Below are positions 1,467-25,795 of a stretch of 64,000 nucleotides of DNA, one piece after another. How positions within the stretch are numbered: position 1 is the stretch's first letter; every line of letters starts with the position of its first letter. Source of the DNA: an uncultured Acidobacteriota bacterium. GTDB lineage: Bacteria; Acidobacteriota; Thermoanaerobaculia; Multivoradales; DATKCC01. The stretch lies in NCBI GenBank assembly GCA_963837945.1, contig CAWIQD010000009.1:64529-128528 (forward strand). The letters run 5' to 3'. Below the pieces are notes generated by a model. It was not told the DNA's origin, searched no databases, and was given only the letters and a program-made list of their open reading frames with translations. The position numbers were made by a program, and so were the translations under genes.

Positions 1467-1726
1467 TGAGCGCGACCGTCGAGTGCAGCCGCTGCGGGCG
1501 GACCGCCGCCGCCCTGTCCCGGCCCCCGTACGCCGGCGAGCTCGGCCGGCAGCTCCAGGAGCGCGTCTGCGCCGACTGCTGGGCGGAGTGGCAGCGCATG
1601 GAAGTCATGGTGATCAACGAGCTGCGCCTGAACTTCATGGACCCCGGGTCGATGGACGTGCTCGCCGAACAGGTCCGGAAGTTCTTCGGGCTCGACGCTC
1701 CGGAGGGCGCCGGCTCCCCCAGTTGA
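1466..1726 (+). CDS. yggX: Fe(2+)-trafficking / oxidative-damage protection protein YggX
   Basis: CSRCGRTAAALSRPPYAGELGRQLQERVCADCWAEWQRMEVMVINELRLNFMD matches the YggX family (cf. E. coli YggX ...[37 protein letters not shown]). ATG at 1466. Confidence 0.8.
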   Translation: MSATVECSRCGRTAAALSRPPYAGELGRQLQERVCADCWAEWQRMEVMVINELRLNFMDPGSMDVLAEQVRKFFGLDAPEGAGSPS

Positions 1727-1806
1727 CCGCGCGGTCCGGCCCTCCTCCGAGCGCCCGGCCGACCCTTCGTCGCGAGCACGCCACGTTGCCCATCGATCCG
1801 GTCGTC

Positions 1807-2841
1807 ATGGAGGGCCTCGCCGCCTGGCGGCGCTCGGACTATCACGGCGCCCGGACGGCCTGGGAAGACCCGGCCGCCGAGACCTCGGGCGACCACCACG
1901 CCCTGCTCTCGGCCCTGGCCGACCTCGCCGGCTCCCTGGAGCGCCAGGGCGCGGGCCACGCCCAGGCGGCGAGCCATCTTCTCGGCGCCACGCGCGACCG
2001 CCTGGCCGAGCTGCCGGCGCAGGTCCTCGGCGTGGACGTCGACCGGCTGCGCGCCGAGCTGCCGGCCGACCCGGCCGCCGCGCTCGCCTCGCCCCCGACG
2101 CTGCGCCCGGTGCGCGCCATCCCGCCCTGGGCCGTGGGGCGCTTCGTCCTGTTCCTCCTGCTCCTCGCCTCGGGCTTCCTGATCCTGCGCTACACGCCGT
2201 TGGGGTCGCGGCTCAACGCCTTCCTCGACCAGGACCGCCTCGAAGCCGTGCGGGCGAGCCTGCGCGCGCACTGGTGGACGGCGCCCGCGCTGCTCGGGCT
2301 CTACTCGGTCCTCGCCCCGCTCGGCGCACCGGTCAGCCCGCTGATGCTCGCCGGCGGCGCGATCTTCGGCGTGCTCTGGGGCTCGGTGCTGAACTTCCTC
2401 GGCACGTTCATCGGCGGGGCGCTCAGCTTCTACCTCGCCCGCTGGCTGGGCCGCGACTTCGTCGCCCACCTGGTCGGCGAGCGGCTGCGCCGGGTCGAGC
2501 GGCTGGTCGCGCGGCGCGGGTTCTGGCCCCTGGTGCGCATCCGGTTCCTGCCCATCCCGTTCCCGGTGGTCAACTATGGCGCCGCCCTGGCGGGGGTCCC
2601 GGCGGCGCTGTTCCTGCTCACCACCGGCCTCGGGCTGATCCCGGCCAACATCGTCTTCACCTACCTCTCGGCCTCCCTCGTCGACGCCGTCGAAGGGGAC
2701 CGGGCGGGGATCATCCTGCGGGTCGCGCTGTCGGTCGCCGGACTGCTGGTGCTCTCGTTCCTGCCCAACGTCCTGGTCGGCCGGCAGCGCCGCAAGCGCT
2801 ACCGCGAGCTCGTCGCGCAGAGGCGAAACCGAGCCGGCTGA
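1807..2841 (+). CDS. TVP38/TMEM64 (DedA-related) family membrane protein with ~115 aa N-terminal cytoplasmic extension
   Basis: Core PLMLAGGAIFGVLWGSVLNFLGTFIGGALSFYLARWLGRDFV is diagnostic of TVP38/TMEM64/SNARE-associated proteins. ATG at 1807. The upstream part of the long ORF is Arg/Pro-rich wrong-frame artefact. Confidence 0.7.
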   Translation: MEGLAAWRRSDYHGARTAWEDPAAETSGDHHALLSALADLAGSLERQGAGHAQAASHLLGATRDRLAELPAQVLGVDVDRLRAELPADPAAALASPPTLRPVRAIPPWAVGRFVLFLLLLASGFLILRYTPLGSRLNAFLDQDRLEAVRASLRAHWWTAPALLGLYSVLAPLGAPVSPLMLAGGAIFGVLWGSVLNFLGTFIGGALSFYLARWLGRDFVAHLVGERLRRVERLVARRGFWPLVRIRFLPIPFPVVNYGAALAGVPAALFLLTTGLGLIPANIVFTYLSASLVDAVEGDRAGIILRVALSVAGLLVLSFLPNVLVGRQRRKRYRELVAQRRNRAG

Positions 2842-2844
2842 AGA

Positions 2845-3045
2845 AGGATCTCGGCCCGGAGGAACCGCTCGCTGCATGCCGAATGGATCGCCCGGCCGAG
2901 ACGGAGCTCGGCCCGGAAGAACCGCTCGCTGCATGCCGAACGGATCGCCCGGCCGAGACGGAGCTCGGCCGCTTCATCCGGGATTGCCTTCGCCGATCGT
3001 CTCAGGCCATGAAGCGGCCGAGCTCCGTCTCGGCCGGCCAGGCGG
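2845..3045. repeat. REP-like palindromic element cluster: two ~62-bp tandem units plus one inverted copy of core GGCCGAG-N6-CTCGGCC
   Basis: Direct repeat ctcggcccgga(g/a)gaaccgctcgctgcatgccgaa(t/c)ggatcgcccggccgagacggag twice. Then inverted copy atgaagcggccgagctccgtctcggccgg. The same core recurs at three other loci in the window. Confidence 0.75.
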
Positions 3046-3128
3046 CCCAACCGGCACCGAGCCCTCCCGCGGAGGCACACCCCGGGCACTCTCCGCGCTG
3101 CGACCGTCAGTCCGAGCTCCGCCAGGTC

Positions 3129-4265
3129 TCACCCTTCGAGAGCTTCCTTGACGTCCTCCTCGTCGATCAGCAGGGCGCCCTGGTTCACCGCGCGCGAGGC
3201 CGCGGGATCGAACTCGTGGTCGCGGATCACCCGCCGGAAGACCTCCTTCAGCGCTCGCGCCCCGAGCCTCGGCTGACGGGCCGCCTGGAGCGCGATCCGG
3301 CGCACCGCCGCCGGCGACAGGGCGAGCCGGATCCCCTGGCTGTCGAAGTACTCCCGCGTCTGGCGCAGGCCCGACTCCGGGCTCTCGAGAAAGATCTTGG
3401 TGAGCTCCTCGACCCCCAGGTCCTCGAGCAGCACCACGGCGTCGAAGCGGGACAGGAACTGCGGCGTCATGCCGTAGTCGAAGAGGTCCTCGTTGCGCAG
3501 CCAGTCGCGCAGCCGGAAGATCTCCTCGCGCCGGACCTTGCCGCCTTCGACCACCGTCACCGGCTGCAGGGCGCCCCGGTCGCGGCCGATGGTCACCCGG
3601 TCGTAGACCGCGTCGTACAGGCCCTCGAAGGCGCCCGCGCAGACGAAGAGCAGGCCGCTCGAGTCGAAGGTGGCGGTGCCGCCGCCCGCCCACGGCGGCA
3701 TCTCGACCTGCACCGCCTCGTTCTCGATCAGGGTGAGCAGGGCCTCCTGGGCGCGGATGCCCTCGACGTTCGGGCGCTCGCCCACGTGGGAGCGGATCTT
3801 GTCCACCTCGTCGACGAAGACGAGAGCGCGCGAGGCGCGGGCGAGAAGCTCCGCCGGCTTGCGGCGCGCCGCCTCGTCCGATCCGAGCTCCTCGCGCACC
3901 CGGTCGAGCAGCCGGTCGACGACCGCCTGCCCGGGTCGCCCCCGCCGCGCCTCCTCGGCCAGCACGTTGGCGTGCAGCCGCACGACCGTCGAGCGGGCCT
4001 CGAGCTCCGGCCGCGAGGCCAGGAGCCGCTCGACCGCGCGCATGAGCGTGGTCTTGCCGGTCCCCGAGGAGCCGATCATCAGGATGTTGCCGGTCGCGAG
4101 GCCCGCCAGGTGCTTGGCGAGCGCGATCGCCATCTCGCGGATCGCCGCCTCCTGCCCGATCACCCGAGAGCGAAGCGCCTCGGCGATCTCCGCCGGTGGA
4201 GGGGTCTTTGGACGAAGAGGGGGTCGAGGTCGTGAGCGGAAGCAAGGTGTCGGAAGCCATCCCAC
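3129..4265 (-). CDS. ClpX/HslU-family AAA+ ATPase (ClpX-like unfoldase lacking the N-terminal zinc-binding domain; IGF docking loop degenerate)
   Basis: VIGQEAAIREMAIALAKH...NILMIGSSGTGKTTLMRAVERLL (Walker A), FVDEVDKI (Walker B), LLFVCAGAF, and C-terminal GARALKEVF sensor region align with ClpX/HslU. No ClpP/HslV gene is adjacent. The region equivalent to the ClpX GIGFG loop reads TIGRDRG. Confidence 0.75.
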   Translation of the reverse strand: MGWLPTPCFRSRPRPPLRPKTPPPAEIAEALRSRVIGQEAAIREMAIALAKHLAGLATGNILMIGSSGTGKTTLMRAVERLLASRPELEARSTVVRLHANVLAEEARRGRPGQAVVDRLLDRVREELGSDEAARRKPAELLARASRALVFVDEVDKIRSHVGERPNVEGIRAQEALLTLIENEAVQVEMPPWAGGGTATFDSSGLLFVCAGAFEGLYDAVYDRVTIGRDRGALQPVTVVEGGKVRREEIFRLRDWLRNEDLFDYGMTPQFLSRFDAVVLLEDLGVEELTKIFLESPESGLRQTREYFDSQGIRLALSPAAVRRIALQAARQPRLGARALKEVFRRVIRDHEFDPAASRAVNQGALLIDEEDVKEALEG

Positions 4266-4267
4266 AT

Positions 4268-4950
4268 TGTAACCGTTCGGTGCCCGCCCACCGATCGCCC
4301 GGCCGAGGCAGAGCTCGGCCCGGGAACCGGGTGCGCGGCCGGAATGGGGTCGCCTCCGGCGGACCGTTCGGTGCCGAGCGCAAGGATCGCCCGGCCGAGG
4401 CAGAGCTCGGCCGCTTCATGGGGGATTGCAGATCGTCACGGGGATCGGACGTCGGGGGGATCGGACGCCGAGGAGTCCGACCCCGCCGATCCATCCCTCC
4501 CCCCTCCGCGGCGGAGCGCACCGCCCCAACCACCGAGGGGCAGCCCGCGGGGCGGGTGGTTTCTCGCCGGCGCAGTTTGCCGCCGAGAAAGCCATCCGCC
4601 CCGCGGGCGTTGGGGTCGCCTCCGGCGGGATGTTCGGTGCTGAATGCCAGGATCGCCCGGCCGAGGCAGAGCTCGGCCCGGGAACCGGGGTGCGCGGCCG
4701 GAATGGGATCGCCTCCGGCGGACCGTTCGGTGCCGAGCGCAAGGGTCGCCCGGCCGAGGCAGAGCTCGGCCGCTTCATGGGGGATTGCAGATCGTCACCG
4801 GGATCGGACGCCGGGGAGTCCGACCCCGCCGATCCACCCCTCCCCTCCCTAGGCCGGGGTCATCGCCCCAATTACCGAGGGGGCAGCCCGCGGGGCGGGT
4901 GGTTTCTCGCCGGCGCAGTTTGCCGCCGAGAAAGCCACCCGCCCCGGGGC
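4268..4950. repeat. REP-like element array including a ~360-bp direct tandem duplication (copy 1 ~4291-4649, copy 2 ~4650-4950); four REP cores total
   Basis: gatcgcccggccgaggcagagctcggcc(cgggaacc|gcttcatggggg) occurs four times. The whole ~360-bp block (two REPs plus a G-rich spacer) is repeated with ~95% identity. Confidence 0.75.
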
Positions 4951-5020
4951 GTGAGCCACGCACCGCCCCACACCGCCGGGGCGTTGGCGAAGCCCGCCCC
5001 GATTCGATAGATTCCAGGCC

Positions 5021-6070
5021 ATGCCACCGAGCCCGTCCTCACCCTCTGTCCTCTCTTCTGCTCTCAGTCCTCGAATCCCGCTCCGCGCTCAAGCCGCCCC
5101 CCCGGCCGCCCCGACCCTCGACCAGGCCCAGCACCTCCTCGACACCGGCAAGCCCCAGGAAGCCCTCGACCTCCTCGCCCCCGTCCTGCGCCGCCACCGC
5201 GACGACCCCCGCGCCCTCCTGCTGCGCTCCACCGCCCGCTTCATGCTCGGCGACACCGACGGCGGTCGGGCCGACCTCGACCGCTCGATCCAGCTCGACC
5301 CGGCTCAGCGCCAGGCCTGGCTCAACCGCGCCGGCCTCGAGATCGCCGAGGGCAGCTACGACCAAGCCCTCCAAGCCCTCGCCAAGGCGCGCACGCTCGA
5401 CCCGACCAACTCCGACAACGACCTCAACACGGGGGCCGTGCTCCTGCTCCAGGGACGGCTGTCGGAGGCCACGGCGCGGTTCCGCAGCTACCTCGAGGCG
5501 GCGCCCGACCAGGCCGCGGCCCACTACCTGGTCGCCACCAACTACGCCGGCCGCGGCTACGCCCGGCTGGCGGTCGAGACCCTGCGCAGCGCGGTCGAGA
5601 TCGACGAGCTCTATCGGCTCCGCGCGCGGACCGATCCCAACTTCGACGGGGTCGCCGACTCGCCCGAGCTCCAGGCGCTCCTCGAAGCCTCGCCGGCACG
5701 CCCGCCGGCCGACCACCGCGTCGCGCGCCAGGCCTTTCCGACCCCGTACGCCGGCGGCCAGGGACTGCTCCTGAGCGCCGTGCTCGAGGCCCTCCACCAG
5801 ATCGGAGCCACCTTCGACCCGCGGGTCGAGGTGGCCACCGGCTGGGCCCTGATCCACGGGCTCCTGCGCATCCAGCTCTACGACCGGCCCGGCGGGGCGG
5901 CCGGCGCCTCGGAGGGCGTCGTCCAGGTGTCGGCACCGCCGGACGCGTTCGATGCCGAGGCGTGGCACCAGCGCACCGACCAGCTCTACCAGGCGATCGA
6001 GCTCGCCTTGCTGAGGCGCCAGCGGACCGGCGCGCCGCCCCCCAAGGAGCCGCTGCCGCCAGGGGCCTGA
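5021..6070 (+). CDS. TPR-repeat protein with N-terminal signal peptide
   Basis: Signal-like N-terminus. Repeated A/L-rich 34-aa TPR-like units (RADLDRSIQLDPAQRQAWLNRAGLEIAEGSYDQALQALAKARTLDP...). Confidence 0.6.
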   Translation: MPPSPSSPSVLSSALSPRIPLRAQAAPPAAPTLDQAQHLLDTGKPQEALDLLAPVLRRHRDDPRALLLRSTARFMLGDTDGGRADLDRSIQLDPAQRQAWLNRAGLEIAEGSYDQALQALAKARTLDPTNSDNDLNTGAVLLLQGRLSEATARFRSYLEAAPDQAAAHYLVATNYAGRGYARLAVETLRSAVEIDELYRLRARTDPNFDGVADSPELQALLEASPARPPADHRVARQAFPTPYAGGQGLLLSAVLEALHQIGATFDPRVEVATGWALIHGLLRIQLYDRPGGAAGASEGVVQVSAPPDAFDAEAWHQRTDQLYQAIELALLRRQRTGAPPPKEPLPPGA

Positions 6071-6321
6071 CCGGCACCACCACGATCCAGCCGATCCAGC
6101 TCCTTGGACCGGGAGCCCATAGGGGTTATGCAGGCCCCTCCCAGGCCCGCAACCGGCCCGAGCGGTAGAGAACGCTCCTTCCCGACCCCGCCCTCCGACC
6201 CGGAGGACTCATACGATCTATGCTCTATCGACGGTCGGCGGCCTGCCGGCGAGCTCGGGCGAGTCGTTCCATCCGACTGATTTCAAGCAGCTTAAGCCCT
6301 CTCCCGCGGCTCGCGGCCGAG

Positions 6322-6338
6322 TTGGCATAGCCGTTGCG
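6322..6338 (+). promoter_or_regulatory. candidate sigma-54 (-24/-12) promoter TTGGCAT-AGCCG-TTGCG
   Basis: GG and GC dinucleotides are exactly 10 nt apart and match TGGCAC-N5-TTGCW. Located ~165 nt upstream of the cytochrome-TPR gene, in a 430-bp noncoding stretch. Confidence 0.35.
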
Positions 6339-6501
6339 CGGGAGTCGAGCCACGGCGAAATCCTGGCGACGCGCCTCCGGTGGGTCTCCGGGCGGACGGA
6401 GGGGACGGCTGCGGTAGACTGGCCCTTCGCACCCGTACCGAAGCAGCCCCCGGAGCCGCCGGTCCGGCCCGGACACTCGACTTTTTCCCCTGCGAAACCC
6501 G

Positions 6502-9358
6502 ATGCGTCTCGACACCCACCGTCTCCTCGCTCTCTCCGGCGCCCTGCTGGTCGCCAACAGCGCGTACCTCGCCGCTTCCGGCGACCCGCGGCCGCTCTAC
6601 TTCTTCAGCCTCCTGGCCCACCTCGGTCTGGGCCTGGTGGCCGCGGCGCTCTTCCTGCCCTGGTGGTGGCGGCGCCGCGGCGAGCGGCTGCTCTTCGCCT
6701 CCGGCGCCGCGCTGGTCGCCTCGGGGCTGGTGGCGGTGGCCCTGCTCGCCGTCGGCAACCGGCGGCCCACCTACTTCCTGGTGCCGGTCCACTGGGGGTT
6801 GGCGCTCGCCGGCCTGGTGGGGATCGCGGCCTGGGGGCTCGCGCGGCGCGGGGGACGGGCCTGGGACCTGGCGGCGGTGGGCCTGGCGCTCGCCGTCGTC
6901 CTGCCGGCGGCCGCCGTCGTCTACCAGCGCCGGCACCCCGACCCGAAGAGCGTGGTCGTCAACACCCCCGCGCCGGTGAGCATGGACCAGGAGGCGATGG
7001 GCGGGCCCGGCGGCCCCTACTTCCCGTCCTCGGTCTCCAACAGCCACGGCGGCCTGGTGCCGTCGTCGATCTACATGGACCCGCAGAGCTGCGGGCGCTC
7101 CGGGTGCCACCCGGACATCCTCGACCAGTGGAACAGCTCGGCGCACCACCGCGGGAGCTTCAACAACCAGTGGTACCGGAAATCCGTCGAGTACATGCAG
7201 GACGTGGTCGGCGTCCAGCCTTCGAAGTGGTGCGGCGGGTGCCACGACCCGGCGATCCTCCAGTCCGGGATGATGGACACGCCGATCGAGAAGATCGTCG
7301 ACACGCCGCAGGCGCAGGCCGGGATCACCTGCACGGCGTGCCACATGATCTCCGAGATCCACAACACGATGGGCAACGGGAACTACGAGATCACCCTCCC
7401 GCCGCTCCACGGCCTGGCGACCAACAAGAACCCCATGCTCTCCGGGCTCCACGACTTCCTGGTGCGCATGGACCCCGAGCCCCACCGCCGGACCTTCATC
7501 AAGCCGTTCTTCAGCGGGGCCGACGTCCCCAAGATGTGCTCCGCCTGTCACAAGGTGCACCTCGACGTGCCGGTCAACCACTACCGCTGGTTCCGCGGCT
7601 TCGACGAATACGACGCCTGGCAGGCGAGCGGCGTCTCCGGCTTCGGCGCCCGCTCCTTCTATTACCCGCCGAGCCCGAAGTCCTGCCCCGACTGCCACAT
7701 GCCGCGGGTCGTCTCGGACGACGCCGGCAACGTCGACGGGATGGTCCACTCGCACCGCTTCCCCGCCGCCAACACCGCCCTGCCCTTCGCCTACCACGAC
7801 CAGACCCAGCTCGATCAGGTGGTCGAGTTCCTCCAGGCGAACCAGGTGAGCGTCGACATCTTCGCCATGACCCGGGGCCGCGAGCCGGAGACCGGGAGAG
7901 AGAGCCGGGGCCTCGAGACCGAGGGGCCGGCCCTCTCCACCACCTCCACCGTCGGCGAGGAGACCGGGATCGCCGTGGGCTCGGGCCTGGGCGCCGCGCC
8001 GCGCGGCCCGGCCGAGCCGGTCTACGCCCCCCTCGACCGGATCCCCGCCACCGTGCGCCGGGGCGACTCGACGCGCATCGACGTGGTGGTGCGCACCCGC
8101 GGCGTGGGCCACGCCTTCCCCGGCGGCACCATCGACGCCGCCGACTGCTGGGTCGAGCTCAAGGCGACCGACTCGGCGGGCAAGACGGTCTTCTGGAGCG
8201 GCATGGCCGACGAGTCGGCGCCGGTCGACAAGGGCGCCCACTTCTACCGCGCCCTGCTGATCGACGAGCACGGCAACCCGATCGACAAGAGAAACGCCTG
8301 GGCGACGCGGGCCGTGATCTACGCCCAGGCGATCCCGCCCGGGGCGGCGGACACCGTCCGTTTCCGGCTGCACGTCCCGCCGGACGCCGCCGACACCATC
8401 CACCTCGAGGCGCGGCTCGACTATCGGAAGTTCTCGTACGACAACACCCGGTACGCCTACTCCGGGCTGCCGCCGGAGGGCGAGAGGGACCTGGTGACCC
8501 CGGCCTACGACGACCGGGGCCTGCGCTACGAGGTCGACCCGAGCCGGATCTCCGGCCCCACCAAGACGGTGCCCGAGCTGCCCATCGTGGTCATGGCCCA
8601 GGACACCCAGGACCTCCACGTGATCGACGCCGGGTCGCCGGTGCCCGACATGACGCACCCGGCCGAGAAGCCCGACGTCGACCGCGAGCGCTGGAACGAC
8701 TACGGCATCGGCTTCCTGCGCCAGGGGGACCTGCGCAGCGCACGCCTGGCCTTCACCCGGGTGACCGAGCTCCAGCCCGGCTACGTCGACGGCTGGGTGA
8801 ACCTCGGCCGGGTGGCGGTGGCCGAAGGCGCGCTCGACGAGGCCCGGCAGGGTGCTCGGCAAGGCGCTCGAGATCGAGCCGAAGCTGCCCCGCGCGCACT
8901 ACTTCCTCGGCCTGGTCGACAAGGAGAGGGGCGAGTACGACTCCGCGCTCGAGCACCTGCGGACCACCGCCGCCAAGTATCCCTACGACCGGGTGGTGCG
9001 CAACCAGATCGGCCGCGTCCTCTTCCTGCGCCACGACTACCGCGCGGCGGTCGACGAGCTCCAGAAGGTGCTCGACATCGACCCCGAGGACCTGATGGCG
9101 CATTACACGCTGATGCTCGCCTACCGCGGGCTGGGCGACCTCGAGAGCTCCCACCACGAGCAGGCGCTCTACGAGCGCTTCAAGGCGGACGAGCCCTCCC
9201 AGGAGCTGACCCGCGTCTACCGCGAGACCCACCCCGAGGACAACAACGAGCGCCAGGCGATCCACGAGCACGGCTCGCCGAGCCGCCAGGAGATCCGAAC
9301 CTTCCTCGCCGCGCACGGCGACCAGAAGGTGATCGGGATCACCGCTGGCGGCGGCTAG
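6502..9358 (+). CDS. membrane-anchored multihaem c-type cytochrome (>=4 CXXCH plus one CX4CH) with C-terminal TPR domain; ORF interrupted by an apparent 1-nt frameshift near 8845-8855
   Basis: N-terminal TM helices, then CGGCHDP, CTACHM, CSACHKVH, CPDCHMP haem-binding motifs. The TPR sequence continues seamlessly in another frame from 8852 (…AEGALDEARQ / VLGKALEIEPKLPRAHYFLGL…). The original frame continues only as Arg/Pro-rich text. Confidence 0.6.
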
Positions 9359-9430
9359 ACCGCCGGCCGCGGCCCCGCGTCGAAACCTCGATCCCGTCGA
9401 ATTCCAGCCGAGACCCAGCGAACGACCATC

Positions 9431-11125
9431 ATGAGCCCGAGAGCCTTCCTCGCGTCCTGCCTCCTCGTCCTCCTCGCCCTGCCGGCGGCCGCCGCCACCG
9501 GTCCGGGGCCCCGCTTCGTCGACGTCACGGCGGCGAGCGGCGTGGACTTCACCCACCAGACCGGCGGCTTCGGCAAGAAGTGGCTGCCCGAGACCATGGG
9601 CTCGGGCGTCGTCCTGCTCGACGCCAACGGCGACGGCCGCCTGGACATCCTGTTCTTGAACGGCCACAGCTTCCCCGGGCAGGCCAAGTCGCCGGGCAAG
9701 GACGCGACCCAGAAGCTGTTCCTGAACCGGGGCGGGCTCAAGTTCGAGGACGCCACGAAGAAGGCGGGGCTCGATCTCTCCGCCTACTGCCTGGGGGGCG
9801 CGGCCGGCGACGTCGACAACGACGGGGACACCGACCTCTACCTCTCCTGCCTGGGGACCGACCACCTGCTGCGCAACGACGGCGGCCACTTCACCGACGT
9901 CTCGAAGCAGGCCGGCCTCTCGCGCGTCGCCGAGTTCGGGGTCTCGGTCGCCATGCTCGACGCCGACCACGACGGCGACCTCGACATCTACGCCACCCGT
10001 TACGTCACCTGGACGCCCGACACGGACCTCTTCTGCACCCTCGACGGCGAGTCCAAGGCCTTCTGCACCCCGGAGTCCTACCCCGGCGCCTCGCCCCGCT
10101 TCTACCGCAACAAGGGCGACGGCACCTTCGAGGACGCGACCAAGCAGGCCGGCCTCTTCAAGCCGACCGCCAAGTCCCTGGGGGTCGCCGTGCTCGACCT
10201 GGACGGCGACGGCTGGGAGGACCTGGCGGTGGCCAACGACACGCAGCCCAACCTGCTCTACCGCAACCGGGGCGACGGCACCTTCGAGGAGATCGGCGTC
10301 GCCTCGGGCATGGCGTTCTCGGAGACCGGAGTCGCCCGCGGCGGCATGGGGATCGACGCCGCCGACTACGACCGGAGCGGCCGTCCCTCGCTGGTGATCG
10401 GCAACTTCGCCAACGAGATGGCCGCCCTCTACCGCAACGAGGGCAACCAGCTCTTCGTCGACGTGGCGCCGGTCTCGGAGCTCGGGCGCAAGACGCTCCT
10501 CACCCTGACCTTCAGCGCCTTCTACTTCGACTACGACCTCGACGGCTGGCTCGACCTGTTCCTGGCCAACGGCCACCTCGACCCGGACATCGAGCAGGTC
10601 CAGCCGCGCGTCCTCTACGCCCAGCCCTCGCAGCTCTTCCACAACGCCGGCAAGGGCAAGTTCGAGGCCGCTCCCGAGGCGACGGTGCACGACCTCGAGC
10701 GCCCGCGGGTGGCGCGCGGCGCGGCCTACGGCGACCTCGACGGCGACGGCGACCTCGACCTGGTGGTGACCGCCAACGGCGGCAAGGCGGCGCTCTTCGA
10801 GAACCGGGGACCGGGCCAGGGCAACTGGCTGCGCCTCGCCCTGCGGGGCACCCGGAGCGACCGGGACGGCGTCGGGGCCCGGATCGAGCTGACCGCCGGC
10901 GGCGGCACGCAGCGCTGGCTGGTGCGGACCGGCGGAAGCTACCTCTCCCAGTCCCAGGTGGCGCCGGTCTTCGGCCTGGGCGCCGCGAGCCGCGCCGACA
11001 AGGTGGTCGTCCGGTGGCCGTCGGGAACGGTCCAGACGTTGACCGACGTGCAGGCCAACCAGGTCCTCGAGGTGGTGGAGCCCGAGGCGGCGAAGCCGGC
11101 TCCCGCGGCCAAGGCGACCCGCTAG
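9431..11125 (+). CDS. CRTAC1 family protein (FG-GAP/VCBS repeats + ASPIC/UnbV domain), secreted
   Basis: Signal peptide. Repeated DxDGDGxxD FG-GAP/VCBS calcium-binding motifs. C-terminal WLRLALRGTRSDRDGVGARIELTAGGGTQRWLVRTGGSYLSQSQ is the ASPIC/UnbV signature. Confidence 0.8.
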   Translation: MSPRAFLASCLLVLLALPAAAATGPGPRFVDVTAASGVDFTHQTGGFGKKWLPETMGSGVVLLDANGDGRLDILFLNGHSFPGQAKSPGKDATQKLFLNRGGLKFEDATKKAGLDLSAYCLGGAAGDVDNDGDTDLYLSCLGTDHLLRNDGGHFTDVSKQAGLSRVAEFGVSVAMLDADHDGDLDIYATRYVTWTPDTDLFCTLDGESKAFCTPESYPGASPRFYRNKGDGTFEDATKQAGLFKPTAKSLGVAVLDLDGDGWEDLAVANDTQPNLLYRNRGDGTFEEIGVASGMAFSETGVARGGMGIDAADYDRSGRPSLVIGNFANEMAALYRNEGNQLFVDVAPVSELGRKTLLTLTFSAFYFDYDLDGWLDLFLANGHLDPDIEQVQPRVLYAQPSQLFHNAGKGKFEAAPEATVHDLERPRVARGAAYGDLDGDGDLDLVVTANGGKAALFENRGPGQGNWLRLALRGTRSDRDGVGARIELTAGGGTQRWLVRTGGSYLSQSQVAPVFGLGAASRADKVVVRWPSGTVQTLTDVQANQVLEVVEPEAAKPAPAAKATR

Positions 11126-11142
11126 ACCGAAACCGCACAGAT

Positions 11143-11222
11143 CTCGCGCAGAGCCGCAGAGGCGCAGGGGCGCGGCTCTTCCCGTCGGTCGCCCTACTCT
11201 GCGTCTCTGCGCCTCTGCGCGA
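11143..11222. repeat. palindromic element of (g/c)cgcagag heptad repeats (family 2), hairpin-forming
   Basis: tctcgcgcagagccgcagaggcgcag ... ctgcgtctctgcgcctctgcgcgag are inverted arms with a 30-bp spacer. The same arms recur at 60848-61053. Confidence 0.5.
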
Positions 11223-11330
11223 GCACTTCGGATCGTACGGCGCAGGATGAAAGCTTCCGCTACTCGCCGTGCTGCCAGCAGAAGCGCGAGCCCGGCTGCG
11301 CCTCGCGGCCGCAGCGCCGGCCGCTCTTCG

Positions 11331-11537
11331 TCACGGCCTCGCACTGCGCATCCGTTGCCGCGGAGCGGCGGGCGGCTCGGGAGCGGCCGGGGCCGGCCCG
11401 GCGGCCTCCGCCTGCGGGCCACTCTCCTCTTCGGCTCTCAGGAGTCCGTAGGCCAGGGCGCCGAGGCCGAGCGCGCCGAGGAGAAGGCAGAGCTTCCTCA
11501 GGAAACGATTCATGGCGCGCTGATTGTAGCCTGCCAC
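11331..11537 (-). CDS. small hypothetical secreted/membrane protein (68 aa)
   Basis: MNRFLRKLCLLLGALGLGALAYGLL signal-peptide-like N-terminus. Sits alone in the intergenic gap. Weak support. Confidence 0.25.
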   Translation of the reverse strand: MAGYNQRAMNRFLRKLCLLLGALGLGALAYGLLRAEEESGPQAEAAGPAPAAPEPPAAPRQRMRSARP

Positions 11538-11541
11538 CGGC

Positions 11542-12615
11542 TCACACGCGCATCAGGACCGAGCCCCAGTGGAGGCCTGCCCCGAGGGCGGTGAAAGCGA
11601 CCAGCGAGCCGGGCGGAGCCTTCCCCTCGAGGCGCGCCTCGTGGAAGGCGAGCGGCAGGGTGGCCGAGGTCGTGTTGCCGTACTTCTGGATGTTGTTGAA
11701 GACCTTCTCCTCGGGCAGCGCCAGGGCCTTGCGCGAGGCTTCGTTGATCCGCAGATTGGCCTGGTGCATGACCAGCAGGTCGAGGTCCTCGATGCCGTAG
11801 CCCTGCGCCGCCAGGACCTCCAGCGTCACCTCCGGCATGCGCGAGACCGCCAGCTTGAAGACCTGGCGGCCGTCCATCACCGGCACCGTCTCCCCCTTGG
11901 CCACCATCTCGCTGGTGACGAAGGGGCGCCGGGCCGAGCCGCCTCCGGGCACGTAGAGGATGTCCTTGTGGCTGCCGTCGGCGTAGAGGCGCGACGCGAG
12001 GATGCCCCGGCCGTCCGCCTCCTCGGCGGCACGGAAGACCATGGCGCCGGCGGCGTCGCCGAACAGGACCAGCAGGTGGCGGAACTGCGAGTTCCAGGCG
12101 AATTCCTCCTCGGAGAGGGCGTCGTCGCCGTCGCCCATCAGCACCTCCCAGGTCCGCTCGGAGAACGGCATCAGCGAGGTGTGGACGTCGGTGCCGATCA
12201 GCAGGACGGTCCGCGCCGTGCCGCTCCCGATCAGGGCGTCGACGGTCTGGAGGCCATAGGCGAAGCCGGCGCACTGCTGCCGGATGTCCAGGACCGGCAG
12301 GGCGTCGATCCCCAGGCGCTCCTGGACGAGCGGGCCGGAGCCGGGGAAGTAGTGGTCCGGGGTCATGGTGGCGAGCACCATGTAGTCGATCTCGCCGGGC
12401 TCCACCCCGGCGTCCTCGAGGGCGGCGCGGGCGGCCTGGGCGCCCAGGTCGGCCGAGCCCGTGCCGGGCTCCACGAAGTAGCGGGTGACGATGCCGCTGC
12501 GCTCCTGGATCCACTCGTCGTCGGTGTCGACGATCCGGGCGAGCCGGTGATTGTCGACGCGGATCGGGGGCACGGCGATCCCGCTGCCGGCGAAGACGGC
12601 TCGAAGTCGGCTCAT
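11542..12615 (-). CDS. 3-oxoacyl-ACP synthase III (FabH-like KAS III family)
   Basis: Thiolase-fold with QQCAGFAYGL active-site Cys region, HQAN and GNTTSATLPLAF motifs typical of FabH-like condensing enzymes. Confidence 0.8.
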   Translation of the reverse strand: MSRLRAVFAGSGIAVPPIRVDNHRLARIVDTDDEWIQERSGIVTRYFVEPGTGSADLGAQAARAALEDAGVEPGEIDYMVLATMTPDHYFPGSGPLVQERLGIDALPVLDIRQQCAGFAYGLQTVDALIGSGTARTVLLIGTDVHTSLMPFSERTWEVLMGDGDDALSEEEFAWNSQFRHLLVLFGDAAGAMVFRAAEEADGRGILASRLYADGSHKDILYVPGGGSARRPFVTSEMVAKGETVPVMDGRQVFKLAVSRMPEVTLEVLAAQGYGIEDLDLLVMHQANLRINEASRKALALPEEKVFNNIQKYGNTTSATLPLAFHEARLEGKAPPGSLVAFTALGAGLHWGSVLMRV

Positions 12616-19920: not shown

Positions 19921-20207
19921 CCCCTTCCCCCCCACCCAGGCGCGGGAGGGGGCGTCCCCTTCCCCCGGGGTGGGAAGGGGATCGAGGGGTTGCGGGGGGA
20001 TCGTCGATCGCGTCCCTCCCCTGGGTGGGAAGGGATCGAGGGGGGGGGCATCCTCCCTTCCCCCCCGTGGGGTGGGAAGGGGATCGAGGGGATGCGGGGG
20101 GCATCCGATCGATCGCGTCCCCTTCCCCCCCGTGGGGTGGGAAGGGGATCGAGGGGATGCGGGGGGCATCCGATCGATCGTCGAGGGGATGCGGGGGGCA
20201 TCCGATC
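19921..20207. repeat. tandem direct repeat array (4-5 units of ~60-66 bp), each unit a strong hairpin CCCCTTCCCCCCC-GTG-GGGTGGGAAGGGG plus GGATGC-G6-GCATCC; G-quadruplex-capable
   Basis: Begins 9 bp after the selB stop. Units nearly identical with no unique spacers, so not CRISPR. Four consecutive G-tracts per unit (GGGG T GGG AA GGGG ATCGA GGGG). Confidence 0.65.
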
Positions 20208-20617: not shown

Positions 20618-21059
20618 GTGACGGGGCAGGGTAGGATTGGGGTCGACTTCGGGTTCGACCGTGAAGAAACTGCACTGGAGGCGGGGGTGAAACGAGTCGC
20701 CGTGTTGGGTGCGTCGCCCGACCACAGGAAGTTCGGCAACAAGAGCGTACGGGCGCACGCTCGAGGCGGGGTGGGAGGTCTTCCCCGTCAATCCGAAGGC
20801 CGAGGAGACGGCGGGCCTCGCGGCCTACCGGTCGCTCGCCGAGGTCCCGGTGCCGGTCGAGCGCATCACCGTCTATCTGCCGCCGCCGGTGACCATGAAG
20901 CTGCTGCCGGAGATCGCCGCCGCCGGGGCGCAGGAGGTCTGGTTCAATCCGGGCGCCGCCGACGCCGCCGTGCTCGCGCGCGCCCGAGAGCTCGGCATCC
21001 CGGCGATCGACGGGTGCAGCATCGTCGACCTCGGCCTGTCCCCATCCATGTTTCCCTGA
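20618..21059 (+). CDS. CoA-binding domain protein (YccU-like); apparent 1-nt frameshift near 20745-20755
   Basis: N-terminal KRVAVLGASPDHRKFGNKSVRA in one frame continues as YGRTLEAGWEVFPVNPKAEE...VWFNPGAADAAVLARARELGIPAIDGCSIV in the next frame. Confidence 0.55.
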
Positions 21060-21071
21060 AAGGACGTCGCG

Positions 21072-21224
21072 ATGAGCAGAAACTCACTCGGAGTGAAGAT
21101 CCTGGCCGTCTACCTGATCCTCGTGGGCATCGTCCTGCTGCTCAGCCTGGCCATTCCGTACTGGTCGATCATCCAGGGCATCCTGGCGCTGGTGGCGGGC
21201 ATCCTGCTCCTCGTCGGCCGGTAG
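21072..21224 (+). CDS. small hydrophobic membrane protein (50 aa)
   Basis: MSRNSLGVKILAVYLILVGIVLLLSLAIPYWSIIQGILALVAGILLLVGR. AAAGGA sits 8 nt upstream. Its stop overlaps the GTG of the next gene (TAGTG). Confidence 0.35.
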   Translation: MSRNSLGVKILAVYLILVGIVLLLSLAIPYWSIIQGILALVAGILLLVGR

Positions 21225-21802
21225 TGTTCGACCTGTTCTCCCTGCTCGGCGACGCGGTCTGGCTGGCGCCGGTCCTGATCTTCGCGGCGCGGGTGAGCGA
21301 CGTCTCGCTGGGGACGTTCCGGATCATCCTGATCTCGCGCGGGATGAGCCGGTGGGCGGCGTTCACCGGCTTCTTCGAAAGCTTCATCTGGCTGGTCGCG
21401 CTCTCCCAGGTCTTCCAGCACCTCGATCACCCGCTCAACTACGTGGCCTACGCCGGCGGCTACGCCACCGGCACCGGGGTGGGCGTGGTGCTCGAGCGCC
21501 GGGTCGCCCTCGGGCTGGTCGCGGTCCGGATCATCACCCGCGAGGATGCCTCGGGGCTGACCGAGGCGCTCCGCACCGAGAGCTTCGGCGTGACCCGGGT
21601 TGCGGCGCGCGGGCTCCACGGCCGGGTGCGCCTGATCTTCACGATCGCCAAGCGCAAGAACCTGACCCGGCTGCTCGACATCATCCGGGCGAACAACCCG
21701 AAGGCGTTCGTGTCGGTGTCCGACGTCCGAGCCGCCGAGGAGGGCTACCTGCCCTCGTCGTCGCGCGGCAACTTGCTCTGGGGGTTGATGAAGAGGAAGT
21801 AA
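21224..21802 (+). CDS. DUF2179 domain protein (UPF0316 family)
   Basis: C-terminal ...LTRLLDIIRANNPKAFVSVSDVRAAEEGY resembles UPF0316 (…NDPKAFITVTDVR…). Membrane N-terminal half. GTG start. Confidence 0.6.
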   Translation: MFDLFSLLGDAVWLAPVLIFAARVSDVSLGTFRIILISRGMSRWAAFTGFFESFIWLVALSQVFQHLDHPLNYVAYAGGYATGTGVGVVLERRVALGLVAVRIITREDASGLTEALRTESFGVTRVAARGLHGRVRLIFTIAKRKNLTRLLDIIRANNPKAFVSVSDVRAAEEGYLPSSSRGNLLWGLMKRK

Positions 21803-21920
21803 GGCCGGGGCCGGGCCGGGGTCGGACTCTTCGGGAGGGGTGGTTGGAGCGTGGCAGTCCTCGGGAGGCGGGAGCGGCGGTCGGAAGGCGGCGGGGATCG
21901 GGGGTCGGGGTCGGTGCCGG

Positions 21921-22170
21921 GGGGCCGAGACGGAGCTCGGCCCGGCAGCTGGGGTGCGAAACGTGGCCGAAGTGTGCCTCCGCAGGAGGGCTCGGTGCGG
22001 GTCATACCGGTCGCCCGGCCGAGGCAGAGCTCGGCCGCTTCATCCGGGATCGCCCTATCGCAACGCTACCCGCGTTGACCGGCAGGGCTCTCCGCCGCCT
22101 GAAGAGTTGTCCCTCCCGCCACGCTACCAACGGTTGAAGCGGCCGAGCTCTGCCTCGGCCGGCCCGACGG
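21921..22170. repeat. REP-like element cluster (two forward cores and one inverted core of GGCCGAG-N6-CTCGGCC)
   Basis: ggccgagacggagctcggcc, cgcccggccgaggcagagctcggccgcttcatccggg, and inverted ttgaagcggccgagctctgcctcggccggcc. Confidence 0.7.
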
Positions 22171-22440: not shown

Positions 22441-25128
22441 CTACCCCTTCGCCTCGTACCAGCTCGCCCCCCACCCCACGTCCACCGCGAGCGGCACGTC
22501 CAGCTCGCACACCCCGCACATCTCCGCCTTCGCCAGCTCCGCCACCGCCTCGACCTCCCCCTCCGGCACCTCGAGCACCAGCTCGTCGTGCACCGTCAGC
22601 AGCAGCTTGGCCCCCGGGCGCTCCTCGCGCAGGCGCCGGTCGAGCCGGATCATCGCCAGCTTCATGATGTCGGCCGCCGTGCCCTGGATCGGCGCGTTGA
22701 TCGCCATGCGCTCGGCGTTTTCCCGCAGCATCCGGTTCTTGCTCGCGACGTCCGGCAGGTGGCGCACGCGGCCGTAGAGGGTCTCGACCCTGCCCTCGCT
22801 CCGCGCCTTGGCGAGCGTCTCCTCCCGGTAGCGCTCGACGCCGGCGTAGCGCGCGAGGTATGCCTTGATGAACGCCTCCGCCTCGGCGCGCGAGATCCCC
22901 AGGTTCTGGGCAAGGCCGTAGGCGCTCATGCCGTACATGATCCCGAAGTTGATGGTCTTGGCCGCCCGGCGCTGCTCGGGGTTGACCAGCGCGGGATCGA
23001 CGCCGAGCACCGCGGCGGCGGTCGTCCGGTGGATGTCCTCGCCCCGGCGGAACGACTCGATCAGCGCCGGCTCGCGTGCGATGTGGGCGAGGATCCGCAG
23101 CTCGACCTGGCTGTAGTCCGCCGCGAGCAGCACGTGGCCCGGCGCGGCGACGAACGCCCTGCGGATGCGCTGGCCGAGCTCCGTGCGCACCGGGATGTTC
23201 TGGAGGTTCGGGTTGGCCGAGGAGAGGCGGCCGGTCGCCGCCACCGCCTGGTTGAAGCGGGTGTGGAGGCGCCCGTCGGCGGCGACCAAGACGGGCAGCG
23301 CGTCGACGTAGGTCGACTTGAGCTTGGTCAGCTCGCGGTAGCGCAGGAGCAGCAGCGGCAGCTGGTAGCCGCGCCCCGCGAGCTCCTCGAGGATCTCGGC
23401 GCCGGTGGCGTAGCTCTTCGTCTTCCGGGTGCGCTTGATCACCGGGTAGCCGAGCTTCTCGAACAGGATGACGCCGAGCTGCTGCGGCGAAGCGACGTTG
23501 AACTCCTCCCCGGCCACGTCGTAGATCCCGCGCTCGAGCTCGCCGATCTCGGCCCCCAGCTCCTCGGACATGGCGGCCAGGTAGTCGCAGTCGAGCCGCA
23601 CCCCGCGCTCCTCCATCCCCAGGAGCACCGGCAGGAGCGGGGCCTCGATCTCGCGGTAGACGCGCGCGAGCGCCGCGCTCTCGACCGCTTCGAGCTCGGC
23701 GCGCGAGCTCTCGGCCAGCTGGGCACCCAGGTGGAGGCGCTCGCCGGCGAGCGCGGCGAGACGCGAGTCGCCGACCGGCGGCGGCCCCTGCTTGTCCCAG
23801 CCCGCGTCCTTCTCGGTCAGCGCCCGCCGGCCCAGGCGCTCGAGCGCCATCTCCTCGAAGCCGTGGCCGTGGACCGCCGGCCGGATCAGGTAGGAGACCA
23901 GCATGACGTCGAACAGCTCCGCCGCCACCTCGAGCTCGCCGATCTCGCCTCCATGGGCGGCGGCCGCCGCCGGCCGGAGCACCTCCTTCAGGTCGTGGCC
24001 GACGAGCTCGCGCTCCGGATCGGCGGCCCACCCGGTCAGGGTTTCGAGCGCCGCCGCCGCCATGCCGTCGCGCCGGAGGTCGGCGAGCCAGACCTTCGCG
24101 CCTCCGTCGCCCACCCCGTCGGCCGGCCCCACCGCGATGCCGAGGGCCTCGTCGCCGCCCAGCCGCGCCACGCCGATGCGCGGTCCCAGGGCTCCGGCCG
24201 TCGCCCTCCAGGCCGCGGGATCGACGATCTCGACCGCCGCCGGCATCTCCTCCTGCGCCGCCGCGTCCCGGTCGAGCTCCTCGACCAGGCTGAAGAACTC
24301 GAGGTCGGCGAACAGCTGCCGCAGGGCCTCGGCGTCCGGCGGGTCGTGGTGCAGGTCCTCGGGGTCGAAGGCGACGTCGAGGTCGGTGTGGATGGTCACC
24401 AGCTCCTGCGAGAGGAGCGCCTGGTCGCGGTTCGTCTCGAGCGACTCCCGGTAGCTCTTGCGGGAGATCTCGGAGGCGTGATCGAGGAGGGCGGCGAGCG
24501 AGCCGTGCTCCCGGATCAGCGCCTTCGCGCCCTTCTCCCCGATGCCGGGCACTCCCGGCACGTTGTCCGAGGCGTCGCCCATCAGCGCCAGCACGTCGAC
24601 CACCTTCTCCGGCGGCACGCCGAAGTCCTCCTCGACGAGCGCCGCGTCATAGAGCTTGTTGCGGCCGGTGTGCATCAGGGAGACGTTGGGGCCGACGAGC
24701 TGCATCAGGTCCTTGTCCGCCGAGACCAGCACCACCTGGTAGCCCGCCGCCGACGCCTTCTTCGCCAGCGTGCCGAGCACGTCGTCGGCCTCGTAGCGCT
24801 CCATCTCCAGGATCGGGATGCGGTAGGCCTCGAGCGCCTTGCGGATCCAGGGGATCTGCGGGCGCAGCTCCTCCGGCATGGGGGCGCGGTGGGCCTTGTA
24901 GTCCTGGTAGCGCTCGGTGCGCACGGTCTGCGAGGAGACGTCGAGCGCCACGCCCACGTGCTCGGGCCGCTCCTCACGCAGGAGCTTGCGGAGCATCTGG
25001 ATGAAGCCGTAGACGGCGTTGGTCGGCTCGCCGCGCGAGTTGGAGAGGTTGCGGATCGCGTAGAAGGCGCGGAAGATGTTCGAGTAGCCGTCGATCAGGA
25101 ACAGGCGTGGAGCGGTCGGATCGGCCAT
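22441..25128 (-). CDS. polA: DNA polymerase I
   Basis: 5'-3' exonuclease N-terminus (LFLIDGYSNIFRAFYA, DASDNVPGVPGIGEKGA). Polymerase motifs A (LLAADYSQVELRILAH), B (RRAAKTINFGIMYG) and C (LLTVHDELVLE). Confidence 0.9.
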   Translation of the reverse strand: MADPTAPRLFLIDGYSNIFRAFYAIRNLSNSRGEPTNAVYGFIQMLRKLLREERPEHVGVALDVSSQTVRTERYQDYKAHRAPMPEELRPQIPWIRKALEAYRIPILEMERYEADDVLGTLAKKASAAGYQVVLVSADKDLMQLVGPNVSLMHTGRNKLYDAALVEEDFGVPPEKVVDVLALMGDASDNVPGVPGIGEKGAKALIREHGSLAALLDHASEISRKSYRESLETNRDQALLSQELVTIHTDLDVAFDPEDLHHDPPDAEALRQLFADLEFFSLVEELDRDAAAQEEMPAAVEIVDPAAWRATAGALGPRIGVARLGGDEALGIAVGPADGVGDGGAKVWLADLRRDGMAAAALETLTGWAADPERELVGHDLKEVLRPAAAAAHGGEIGELEVAAELFDVMLVSYLIRPAVHGHGFEEMALERLGRRALTEKDAGWDKQGPPPVGDSRLAALAGERLHLGAQLAESSRAELEAVESAALARVYREIEAPLLPVLLGMEERGVRLDCDYLAAMSEELGAEIGELERGIYDVAGEEFNVASPQQLGVILFEKLGYPVIKRTRKTKSYATGAEILEELAGRGYQLPLLLLRYRELTKLKSTYVDALPVLVAADGRLHTRFNQAVAATGRLSSANPNLQNIPVRTELGQRIRRAFVAAPGHVLLAADYSQVELRILAHIAREPALIESFRRGEDIHRTTAAAVLGVDPALVNPEQRRAAKTINFGIMYGMSAYGLAQNLGISRAEAEAFIKAYLARYAGVERYREETLAKARSEGRVETLYGRVRHLPDVASKNRMLRENAERMAINAPIQGTAADIMKLAMIRLDRRLREERPGAKLLLTVHDELVLEVPEGEVEAVAELAKAEMCGVCELDVPLAVDVGWGASWYEAKG

Positions 25129-25740: not shown

Positions 25741-25795
25741 TCGGAGTGTTTCCGCAGCCAGGGGCGTCCGGCCGACGCCCCGGTAGAATGCCGGC

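Follow-up and report, generated by a model that had tools for sequence, protein, structure and literature searches.

A 64-kb stretch of DNA (72% G+C; referred to throughout, at its full length, as the window) from an uncultured soil lineage of the Acidobacteriota (Thermoanaerobaculia) contains a family of short palindromic repeats. With a probability of roughly 85%, we interpret these as repetitive extragenic palindromes (REPs) of this lineage, the non-autonomous partners of a HUH/Y1 REP-associated tyrosine transposase (RAYT, or TnpA-REP) whose gene would be present once, at another place in the genome. Direct support comes from the family itself, the structure of its members, an extragenic placement biased toward the 3′ ends of genes, association with a RAYT, paired changes in the stem, a fixed-length unit resembling the REPINs (inverted REP pairs) of other bacteria, and differences between genomes.

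The palindrome GGCCGAG-N6-CTCGGCC occurs in the window as 12 exact copies with no mismatches, against 0.28 expected and a maximum of two in 100 dinucleotide-preserving shuffles. A preceding inspection of the letters alone (hereafter, the sequence-only reading) had described a repeat present at least 12 times in four named clusters, in both orientations, always intergenic, and with a stem of 7–9 bp and a loop of 6 nt. This description stands: there are exactly 12 exact cores, all within those clusters (Table 1), the loop reads RCRGAG on the + strand in 10 copies, with the complementary sequence in those at 3016 and 22141, and 12/12 copies lie between Pfam-supported genes. We assigned the + strand to copies with RCRGAG on the + strand; the tag-bearing strand (5′-TGAAGC followed by the stem) is then the − strand. 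The 7-nt arms are perfectly complementary in all copies. Eight copies carry GCTTCA in the 3′ flank and form an 8-bp stem with a 6-nt loop, while the remaining four carry CGG(G/A)A.. without GCTTCA; copies tailed by CGGGAACC form a stem of ~10 bp with a bulge. The asymmetric tail CTCGGCCGCTTCA is likewise found in eight copies versus 0.29 expected in the window. Read on the tag-bearing strand, the unit is 5′-TGAAG-[C GGCCGAG]-CTCYGY-[CTCGGCC G]-GGCGA, with a perfect 8-bp stem and four of the six loop positions fixed; written by its arms, the element is 5′-TGAAG-[CGGCCGAG]-CTCYGY-[CTCGGCCG], of which the conserved tag does not pair. A single hairpin has a folding free energy (dG) of approximately −10 kcal/mol as DNA. 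Clusters 1 and 3 share a common architecture, namely an untagged REP (+), a tagged REP (+), and a tagged REP (−). The density of REPs along the window is very uneven, with all copies in the first 26 kb and none in the other 38 kb.

The family is not confined to these four loci and is dispersed genome-wide in related Thermoanaerobaculia metagenome-assembled genomes (MAGs). Scanning one genome per GTDB species with CCGGCCGAGRCRGAGCTCGGCC returned at least 64 stretches with the exact 22-mer; among the matches listed, 63 were in six Thermoanaerobaculia/Acidobacteriota MAGs, and the sole other one, a Streptomyces stretch (L057), was taken as chance. The MAG CAVUJU01 (MFD01721.bin.1.239) holds at least 61 copies with 0–1 mismatch on four contigs (0.56–3.08 Mb), and one of its loci (L063) aligns collinearly with positions 3525–11999 of the window at ~90% identity, indicating that the window and CAVUJU01 derive from sister species. 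From the window and the related loci, we gathered 99 copies with at most one core mismatch, copies with two mismatches being discarded as mostly GC-rich noise. The flanks outside the search pattern are conserved, with CC at −2/−1 in 94–98%, G at +1 in 91% (which provides the eighth base pair), and CTTCA in 81–85%. The tag TGAAG (GCTTCA on the other strand) is present in 66/97 copies and CTTC in 70/97, and a weaker upstream box, cGyTCGGTGCC-N10-GrTCGCCC, recurs near the REPs.

Under the strict core criterion, 52 of the 72 clusters consist of a single REP. The adjacent pairs in the sampled loci (n = 27) comprise 16 direct and 11 inverted ones. Direct pairs in the window and related loci are spaced 36–168 nt apart with a mode near 92–96, and eight of the 27 pairs face each other tag to tag, seven of these at 65–66 nt. 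The spacer of the tag-to-tag doublet is polar and not palindromic. The doublet at 2943–3045 forms a single long hairpin (dG −46.8 kcal/mol, z −9.3) that none of 200 shuffles equaled, and the stretch at 22009–22158 also forms a long hairpin (dG −49.2 kcal/mol, z −6.4).

A transposase partner was found in the sister genome. The window itself lacks one, as the sequence-only reading had noted: tblastn with the sister RAYT gave a best E of 9.9, and a motif search of all six frames (HUH and Y-x-x-x-NP) found nothing. The same motif search across the related loci returned one open reading frame (ORF), at 3423–3908(−) of a locus (L032) on the 3.08-Mb contig of the sister genome. This was the one gene found by tblastn over 424 kb of loci, in which L017 gave a weak match (34% over 61 aa, E 0.36). 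The product (P0001; 161 aa, with HLH and YxxxNP motifs) scores 80.2 bits against the NCBIfam model NF047646, ‘REP-associated tyrosine transposase’ (cut-off 80). Its best PDB sequence match is the E. coli TnpA-REP (4ER8), which is also the only fold match below E 1e-3 (E 4e-6, TM 0.60) for its AlphaFold model (pLDDT 85). A large protein collection holds 16 relatives, several of which are named RayT by JGI; the closest, P0002, shares 81% identity. Residues H74, H76, W110, Q111, Y131, N135, and P136 are invariant in the alignment, and the corresponding motifs, H-x-H, WQ, and Y-x-x-x-N-P, are the signatures of class 2 (RAYT) enzymes (PMC6006769, Table 1). By comparison of motifs and length, the clade appears closest to subclass 2.5/group 3.

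The same REP as that of the window brackets the gene in L032: copies at 3181+, 3247−, and 3370− precede it in the numbering of the locus, and others at 3985+, 4050−, and 4144− follow it. The nearest copies are mutually inverted, and the tags are distal to the gene. The sequence-only reading had described a REP-like family and proposed searching the genome for a RAYT; the gene found in the ~90%-identical sister supports this interpretation. The association extends to relatives at 44–65% identity (L065–L069), each of whose genes is flanked by arrays of REP hairpins that keep TGAAGC and the GGCC base of the stem (Table 1), while the upper stem changes between loci by paired substitutions (GAG/CTC, GAC/GTC, GGG/CCC, and GGC/GCC). 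In an alignment of 15 REP variants, selected for a paired stem of 6 bp or more, two of the eight pairs show changes in both partners (13 cells), versus zero in every slid control, and the tag TGAAG is invariant in these 15 variants from seven RAYT-linked sources. These stem differences recall the co-evolution of REPs and RAYTs reported in groups 2 and 3 (PMC8266576). An ENA contig of 41% GC (SCHO22-1...scaffold_51915; L070) carries a RAYT gene whose product shares 40% identity with the Thermoanaerobaculia RAYT; around this gene, at least ten classical GTAG REPs of the form GTAG-GGTCCGTTC-TCC-GAACGGACC alternate in orientation over positions 400–1556 (GTAGGGTCCGTTCTCCGAACGGACC, GGCCTGTTCGGAGAACAGGCCCTAC).

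The repeats also turn over between close genomes. For three of the window clusters, a comparison was possible with the orthologous spacers of genomes that share 89–90% identity in PolA. Where the window holds four, three, and two REPs, the orthologous spacers hold one, zero (plus one remnant in L071), and zero, respectively, indicating recent turnover. In the spacer between the AAA+ and TPR genes, the sister locus L063 has one tagged REP and one downstream module in a single block; the window has an extra 92-nt unit with an untagged REP (the copy at 4293–4331, absent from L063) and the whole block twice. The DUF5698–polA spacer, with its three REPs in the window, has none in CAVUJU01 (L072) and a half-remnant only in the JGI contig L071, and the Transgly_assoc–TPR spacer, with two REPs and 303 nt in the window, has none and measures 139–153 nt in L071 and L072. 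No intact REP copy occurs in the sister polA loci (10.7 kb each).

The doubled block in the AAA+/TPR spacer had been described as a tandem duplication of a period of ~359 bp and ~95% identity, containing two elements plus a G-rich spacer, and taken to suggest recent slippage or recombination. Pairwise alignment of the units (4293–4606 vs. 4651–4949) gave 94.6% identity over ungapped columns, with a 16-nt indel shifting the period from 359 to 343, and the single block in the sister agrees with local expansion; a Tandem Repeats Finder run did not list the duplication at 4293–4950. The ‘G-rich spacer’, in turn, proved to be a second dispersed hairpin module (hairpin of ~30 bp) that recurs in the window at ~4815–4950 (hairpin 4886–4949). 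Copies of this module adjoin REPs in L019 (two), L030, L003, L011, and L063, indicating that the REPs sit in mosaics with other motifs, as in bacterial interspersed mosaic elements (BIMEs). A larger unit is also repeated around the REP at 25702, where positions 25648–25762 are 93% identical to two copies in L052.

The literature covers REPtrons, group-3 RAYTs whose palindromes are short and perfect, the strand-specific way in which single-stranded DNA is processed, and the guiding function of the tag (PMC8266576, PMC3333891, PMC3479197, PMC6006769, PMC3733652). From the biochemistry available for E. coli, Stenotrophomonas, and Marinomonas, we infer the binding, cleavage, and strand-transfer chemistry of the present system, along with any role at the RNA level. 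The REP hairpin would fold when the DNA is single-stranded, and the RAYT would bind the stem-loop and the tag on one strand only; its catalytic tyrosine would cleave nearby, and rejoining of the DNA would yield new copies, either single or as the 65–66-nt tag-to-tag doublet (REPIN-like). Slippage or unequal recombination among close copies would then expand the arrays, producing the 57-nt and 92–94-nt head-to-tail repeats and the 359-bp duplication near the AAA+ gene. In transcripts, these GC-rich hairpins, most of which follow the 3′ end of a gene, would probably act as protectors of mRNA 3′ ends or as barriers to transcription and not as canonical terminators, given that they have no U tract.

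Among known systems, the group 3/subclass 2.5 REPtrons of Pseudomonas, Stenotrophomonas, and Marinomonas (PMC8266576, PMC6006769) share a short perfect palindrome with an 8-bp stem and conserved loop positions, a RAYT of ~150–160 aa with D-H-L-H, WQ, and Y-x-x-x-N-P in the family consensus, a gene bracketed by inverted REPs and recorded on a single contig, and a stem that varies between RAYT loci. The present system differs from them in its Acidobacteriota host, a TGAAG(C) tag in place of GTAG, common head-to-tail pairs, and the GHLH of the sister copy in place of DHLH. The E. coli TnpA-REP (YafM; 4ER8; PMC3333891, PMC3479197) is the best match of the RAYT in both sequence and fold, although its C-terminal extension is absent from the 161-aa protein and the match ends near residue 152. 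The E. coli REPs are similarly extragenic hairpins in mosaic clusters with other motifs (here, the module at 4470–4610) and prefer positions downstream of genes, but they are longer, with a bulged stem and a strict GTAG, and alternate in orientation within BIMEs, whereas perfect stems, another tag, and many direct arrays are seen here. A BIME combines regularly spaced REPs of alternating orientation with other conserved motifs; a mosaic with other repeated modules is seen here, and orientation within the arrays is mostly direct. The inverted REP pair with a short fixed spacer and a long hairpin recalls the REPINs of Pseudomonas fluorescens SBW25, the unit thought to be what replicates there (PMC3116915, PMC3337134). 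Here, however, doublets are a minority of adjacent pairs, REPs are mostly single, and the spacer is polar.

The GTAG super-family of Di Nocera et al. 2013 (PMC3733652) offers further parallels, including a 6–9-bp stem with a short loop and a non-pairing terminal tag, an organization in singletons, dimers, and trimers, a preference for convergent and unidirectional spacers, occasional intragenic copies, and association with RAYTs. That survey recorded GTAG repeats in Proteobacteria, Cyanobacteria, Chloroflexi, and the PVC group and none in Acidobacteria, where it found only tyrosine transposases flanked by terminal inverted repeats (TIRs); our literature search found no description of REPs in Acidobacteria. 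One criterion for a REP is a tetranucleotide directly 5′ of the palindrome, ‘most often GTAG’ (PMC8266576), and TGAAG occupies this classical position. Its GAAG falls outside the listed variants (GYAG, GYRG, GTRG, GTMG, and GTGG), which keeps the element out of the GTAG super-family as defined in PMC3733652, though it works like a member. The system is a REPtron of the short-perfect-palindrome type, which has the defining features tested except for a literal GTAG. It implies no new kind of system, being an ordinary REP/RAYT system with a variant tag in a little-studied phylum.

A more specific proposal, which we put forward as tentative and rather doubtful, is that these repeats form a distinct REP lineage, in which the tag would have changed from GTAG to TGAAG along with the RAYT clade, and in which a tag-less ‘B’ and a tagged ‘A’ REP ~92–94 nt apart would spread together as one head-to-tail composite. 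For a group-3 RAYT, choice of the cleavage site by the tag has been shown; were both the proposal and such a role of the tag to hold here, the clade would represent a natural case of RAYT retargeting and the first REP/RAYT system characterised in the Acidobacteriota.

Several observations weigh against reading the repeats as partners of this RAYT. The sister protein only just reaches the NCBIfam cut-off and falls just under that of Pfam (Y1_Tnp, 22 bits; cut-off 23). At residue 73 it reads PGHLH, where 11 of 12 aligned relatives have PDHLH or PDHxH and P0012 has PAHVH; this copy may be impaired or catalytically weakened, judging from the substitution, though its REPs are numerous. The enzyme is known from the sister genome and more distant relatives, the genome of the window itself being outside the search. 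The tag is TGAAG and not GTAG, which appears only with the distant relative in L070, and seven copies, four of them in the window, are untagged. A single hairpin is thermodynamically ordinary for 72%-GC DNA (z approximately −1.3 to −1.6), the conservation of the core is partly an effect of ascertainment, as an exact pattern collected the copies, and the paired-stem requirement used in extracting the variants qualifies the covariation. Finally, head-to-tail pairs are commoner than inverted ones, which is unusual among described REP families (head-to-tail dimers were rare in the 2013 survey; PMC3733652) and fits local slippage at least as well as transposition.

The placement of the repeats relative to genes bears on the strongest alternative. 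In a crude gene call over the window and loci, based on G+C at third codon positions, the called coding fraction is at least 0.67; only 13/99 cores fall in crude ORFs (binomial p ~1e-28 against 0.67), in keeping with the intergenic bias that the sequence-only reading had proposed to test across the genome. Twelve of the 13 lie at a locus edge or within approximately the first 110 codons, which points to over-extended ORF starts. The motif is not part of a conserved coding sequence, and the one in-frame doublet is a true intragenic insertion with the reading frame kept. It lies in an rnfC-like gene of the sister genome (1928–3463 of L026, CAVUJU010000003.1; domains RnfC_N, Complex1_51K at 3.4e-49, SLBB, and Fer4), where two REPs, at 2616 and 2712 with 32 codons (96 nt) from one to the next, lengthen the FMN-binding domain and are translated as ...SRMKRPSSASAGR...SRMKRPSSASAGA... 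By spacer type, REP clusters occupy 22 convergent, 25 tandem, and one divergent spacer, against a background of 47/131/30 (chi-square p = 1.6e-4); the known bias of REPs is to positions downstream of genes (PMC3733652), which makes the array in the divergent AAA+/TPR spacer the atypical one.

Near absence from divergent promoter regions would also be seen if the repeats were structural or regulatory hairpins of the host (mRNA 3′-end stabilisers, barriers, or protein sites), maintained by selection and spread only by recombination, gene conversion, and slippage, with the RAYT locus being incidental. The head-to-tail arrays and the 359-bp duplication do look like products of slippage or unequal recombination, and REP sequence, not a target-site duplication, borders the REP that the window has in excess of L063. 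Such an account nevertheless struggles with six independent RAYT genes bracketed by inverted REP arrays with locus-specific stems, which are hard to explain without a functional link, and with the conservation of an asymmetric tag that does not pair. REP orientation relative to the upstream gene is random (34 vs. 31), and consensus terminator and promoter scans found nothing at any REP, nor is there a U tract; we rejected a plain terminator reading. REP-free orthologous spacers, moreover, measure 139–176 nt versus 303–638 nt in the window, pointing to DNA gain at new sites. On balance, we consider a purely host-derived origin improbable.

Still less probable, in our view, is that the repeats are TIR-type miniature inverted-repeat transposable elements (MITEs) moved by a DDE transposase, or the ends of a multi-copy autonomous IS200/IS605 element. 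The inverted doublets are of fixed length and form long hairpins as MITEs do, the genome does contain a separate, probable TIR-type MITE (described below), and RAYTs are structurally close to the TnpA of IS200/IS605. Most copies, however, are singletons or direct pairs and not TIR pairs, and no target-site duplication was seen at the one site where a filled and a simpler state could be compared. All 13 aligned RAYT relatives match NF047646 (best 2.7e-35), whereas only one also touches the IS200 model; searched with the RAYT family profile, 4ER8 is found at 6.7e-13 and IS200/IS605 transposases are weaker by approximately seven or more orders of magnitude. The tyrosine motif is YxxxNP, as in class 2 (RAYT), and not the YxxxQ of IS200 (PMC6006769, Table 1), each homologue is recorded on a single contig, and no tnpB was called beside the RAYT genes in L065–L070. 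Short, palindromic, locally clustered repeats could also suggest an array of the CRISPR kind or a product of chance in GC-rich DNA; this is refuted by the two orientations within clusters, the irregular spacing of 57–266 nt, ‘spacers’ that are themselves repeated elsewhere, the excess over shuffled sequence, and the dispersal of the same 22-mer over megabase contigs.

The four REP clusters of the window occupy the VTT/DedA–AAA+, AAA+–TPR, DUF5698/DUF2179–polA, and Transgly_assoc–TPR/FG-GAP spacers (Table 1). The sequence-only reading had placed clusters on both sides of a ClpX-like gene and of polA; the flanking is as described, with the reservation that the fourth cluster is parted from polA by the small Transgly_assoc gene. 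The label ClpX-like needs correction. The 378-aa product of 3129–4265(−) has AAA_2 and ClpB_D2-small domains, no N-terminal zinc-binding domain, and 134 bits against the ClpX model (cut-off 359), and is a stand-alone ClpX/HslU-related ATPase, not ClpX. The position 28 nt upstream of its start codon, where a REP begins in the window, also carries a REP in the sister genome.

Table 1. REPs, associated repeats, and flanking genes of the window, and REPs flanking RAYT genes in related loci
Feature	Position or locus	Strand	Remarks
Truncated REP	2851-2867	+	3′ half of palindrome and B-type tail (CTCGGCCCGGAGGAACC); 10 nt past VTT/DedA stop codon
57-nt tandem array	2834-2970		First unit partial (truncated REP)
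REP, cluster 1	2886-2924	+	Core 2894-2913; loop ACGGAG; B-type tail CGGAAGAACC; no TGAAGC tag
REP, cluster 1	2943-2981	+	Core 2951-2970; tail GCTTCA; left arm of inverted doublet
REP, cluster 1	3007-3045	-	Core 3016-3035; tag ATGAAGC at 3009-3015; right arm of inverted doublet
REPIN-like doublet	2943-3045		Two REPs tag-to-tag, with starts 65 nt apart; in convergent VTT/DedA–AAA+ spacer
REP, cluster 2	4293-4331	+	Core 4301-4320; loop GCAGAG; B-type tail CGGGAACCGGG; starts 28 nt upstream of AAA+ start codon (4265)
REP, cluster 2	4385-4423	+	Core 4393-4412; tail GCTTCATGGGG; ortholog in L063 at 7202
REP, cluster 2	4651-4689	+	Core 4659-4678; B-type tail; second duplication unit; 100% identical to 4293-4331
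REP, cluster 2	4744-4782	+	Core 4752-4771; tail GCTTCATGGGG; second duplication unit
Tandem duplication	4293-4950	+	B-type REP, linker, tagged REP, second-family hairpin module; period 359 nt, then 343
Long hairpin of second dispersed module	4543-4608		Module ~4470-4610; dG −36.8 kcal/mol, z −5.8
REP, cluster 3	21915-21953	+	Core 21923-21942; untagged tail CGGCAGC
REP, cluster 3	22009-22047	+	Core 22017-22036; tail GCTTCATCC; left arm of inverted doublet
REP, cluster 3	22133-22168	-	Core 22141-22160; tag TTGAAGC; right arm, 124 nt from partner
REP, cluster 4	25583-25621	+	Core 25591-25610; loop ACAGAG; tail GCTTCATGGG
REP, cluster 4	25702-25740	+	Core 25710-25729; loop ACAGAG; tail GCTTCATGGG
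VTT/DedA gene	1483-2841	+	Pfam-supported
AAA+ ATPase gene	3129-4265	-	Pfam-supported
TPR gene	5021-6070	+	Pfam-supported
DUF5698/DUF2179 gene	20618-21802	+	Pfam-supported
polA	22441-25128	-	Pfam-supported
Transgly_assoc gene, small	25175-25492	+	Pfam-supported
TPR/FG-GAP gene	25796-29236	+	Pfam-supported
RAYT-flanking REP	L065		TGAAGC-GGCCGAC-CTCCGC-GTCGGCC
RAYT-flanking REP	L066		TGAAGC-GGCCGGG-CTTG-CCCGGCC
RAYT-flanking REP	L067		TGAAGC-GGCCGGC-N5-6-GCCGGCC
RAYT-flanking REP	L068		TGAAGC-GGCCGGT-CTCTGC-GCCGGCC
RAYT-flanking REP	L069		TGAAGC-GGCCGGG-CCCCGY-CCCGGCC

The window contains other repeats besides these. A 164-nt element at 39421–39584 has TIRs of ~25–30 nt (AGTGGTCCGTCAAC.TTCA.TTGAC) and a G+C content below that of the genome, begins at the stop codon of the gene at 38993–39421, and forms a single long hairpin (dG −51 kcal/mol, z −5.8). 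Copies occur in the sister genome at a non-syntenic position (L033 7732–7895, 99.4%), in L035 (91%), and in L019 (87%), and the element resembles a TIR-type MITE that was active recently and has no relation to the REPs. A 65-nt unit (CCCTTCCCCCCCGTGGGGTGGGAAGGGGATCGAGGGGATGCGGGGGGCATCCGATCGATCGCGTC) at 20055–20180, present in 1.9 copies at 100% identity and overlapping a looser 47-nt repeat (19948–20106), is a very recent tandem duplication in intergenic DNA rich in G/C runs. Downstream of the DUF5698 gene, the motif GTCGGACTC..CGGGAGGGGTGGTTGG.GCGTGG.AG.CCTCGGGAG has a single copy in the window (~21820–21870) and three tandem units of ~60–65 nt in the orthologous spacer of the sister (L072 6860–7060, reverse strand), and is a further length-variable intergenic repeat. 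Across the whole window, no Rfam family reached its gathering threshold, and in the region of the TIR element (39300–39700) nothing matched at E ≤ 1.

The REPs have practical consequences for the annotation of these genomes. As the sequence-only reading had recognized from its MKRPSSASAGR pseudo-ORFs, a tagged copy read on the reverse strand (ATG AAG CGG CCG AGC TCT GCC TCG GCC GG) encodes MKRPSSASAG, a peptide that recurs in the ORF lists of related loci. The REPs also push predicted gene starts too far upstream, and gene calls in Thermoanaerobaculia MAGs would improve if the family were masked. The arrays are also likely assembly breakpoints, many short-read contigs in the scan ending at or near a REP. 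The graded series of RAYTs and REPs, with the same tag, co-varying upper stems, and the GTAG outgroup in L070, is usable for studying how a RAYT reads stem, loop, and tag. For the biology of the group, the finding extends the REP/RAYT partnership to an uncultured class of soil Acidobacteriota.

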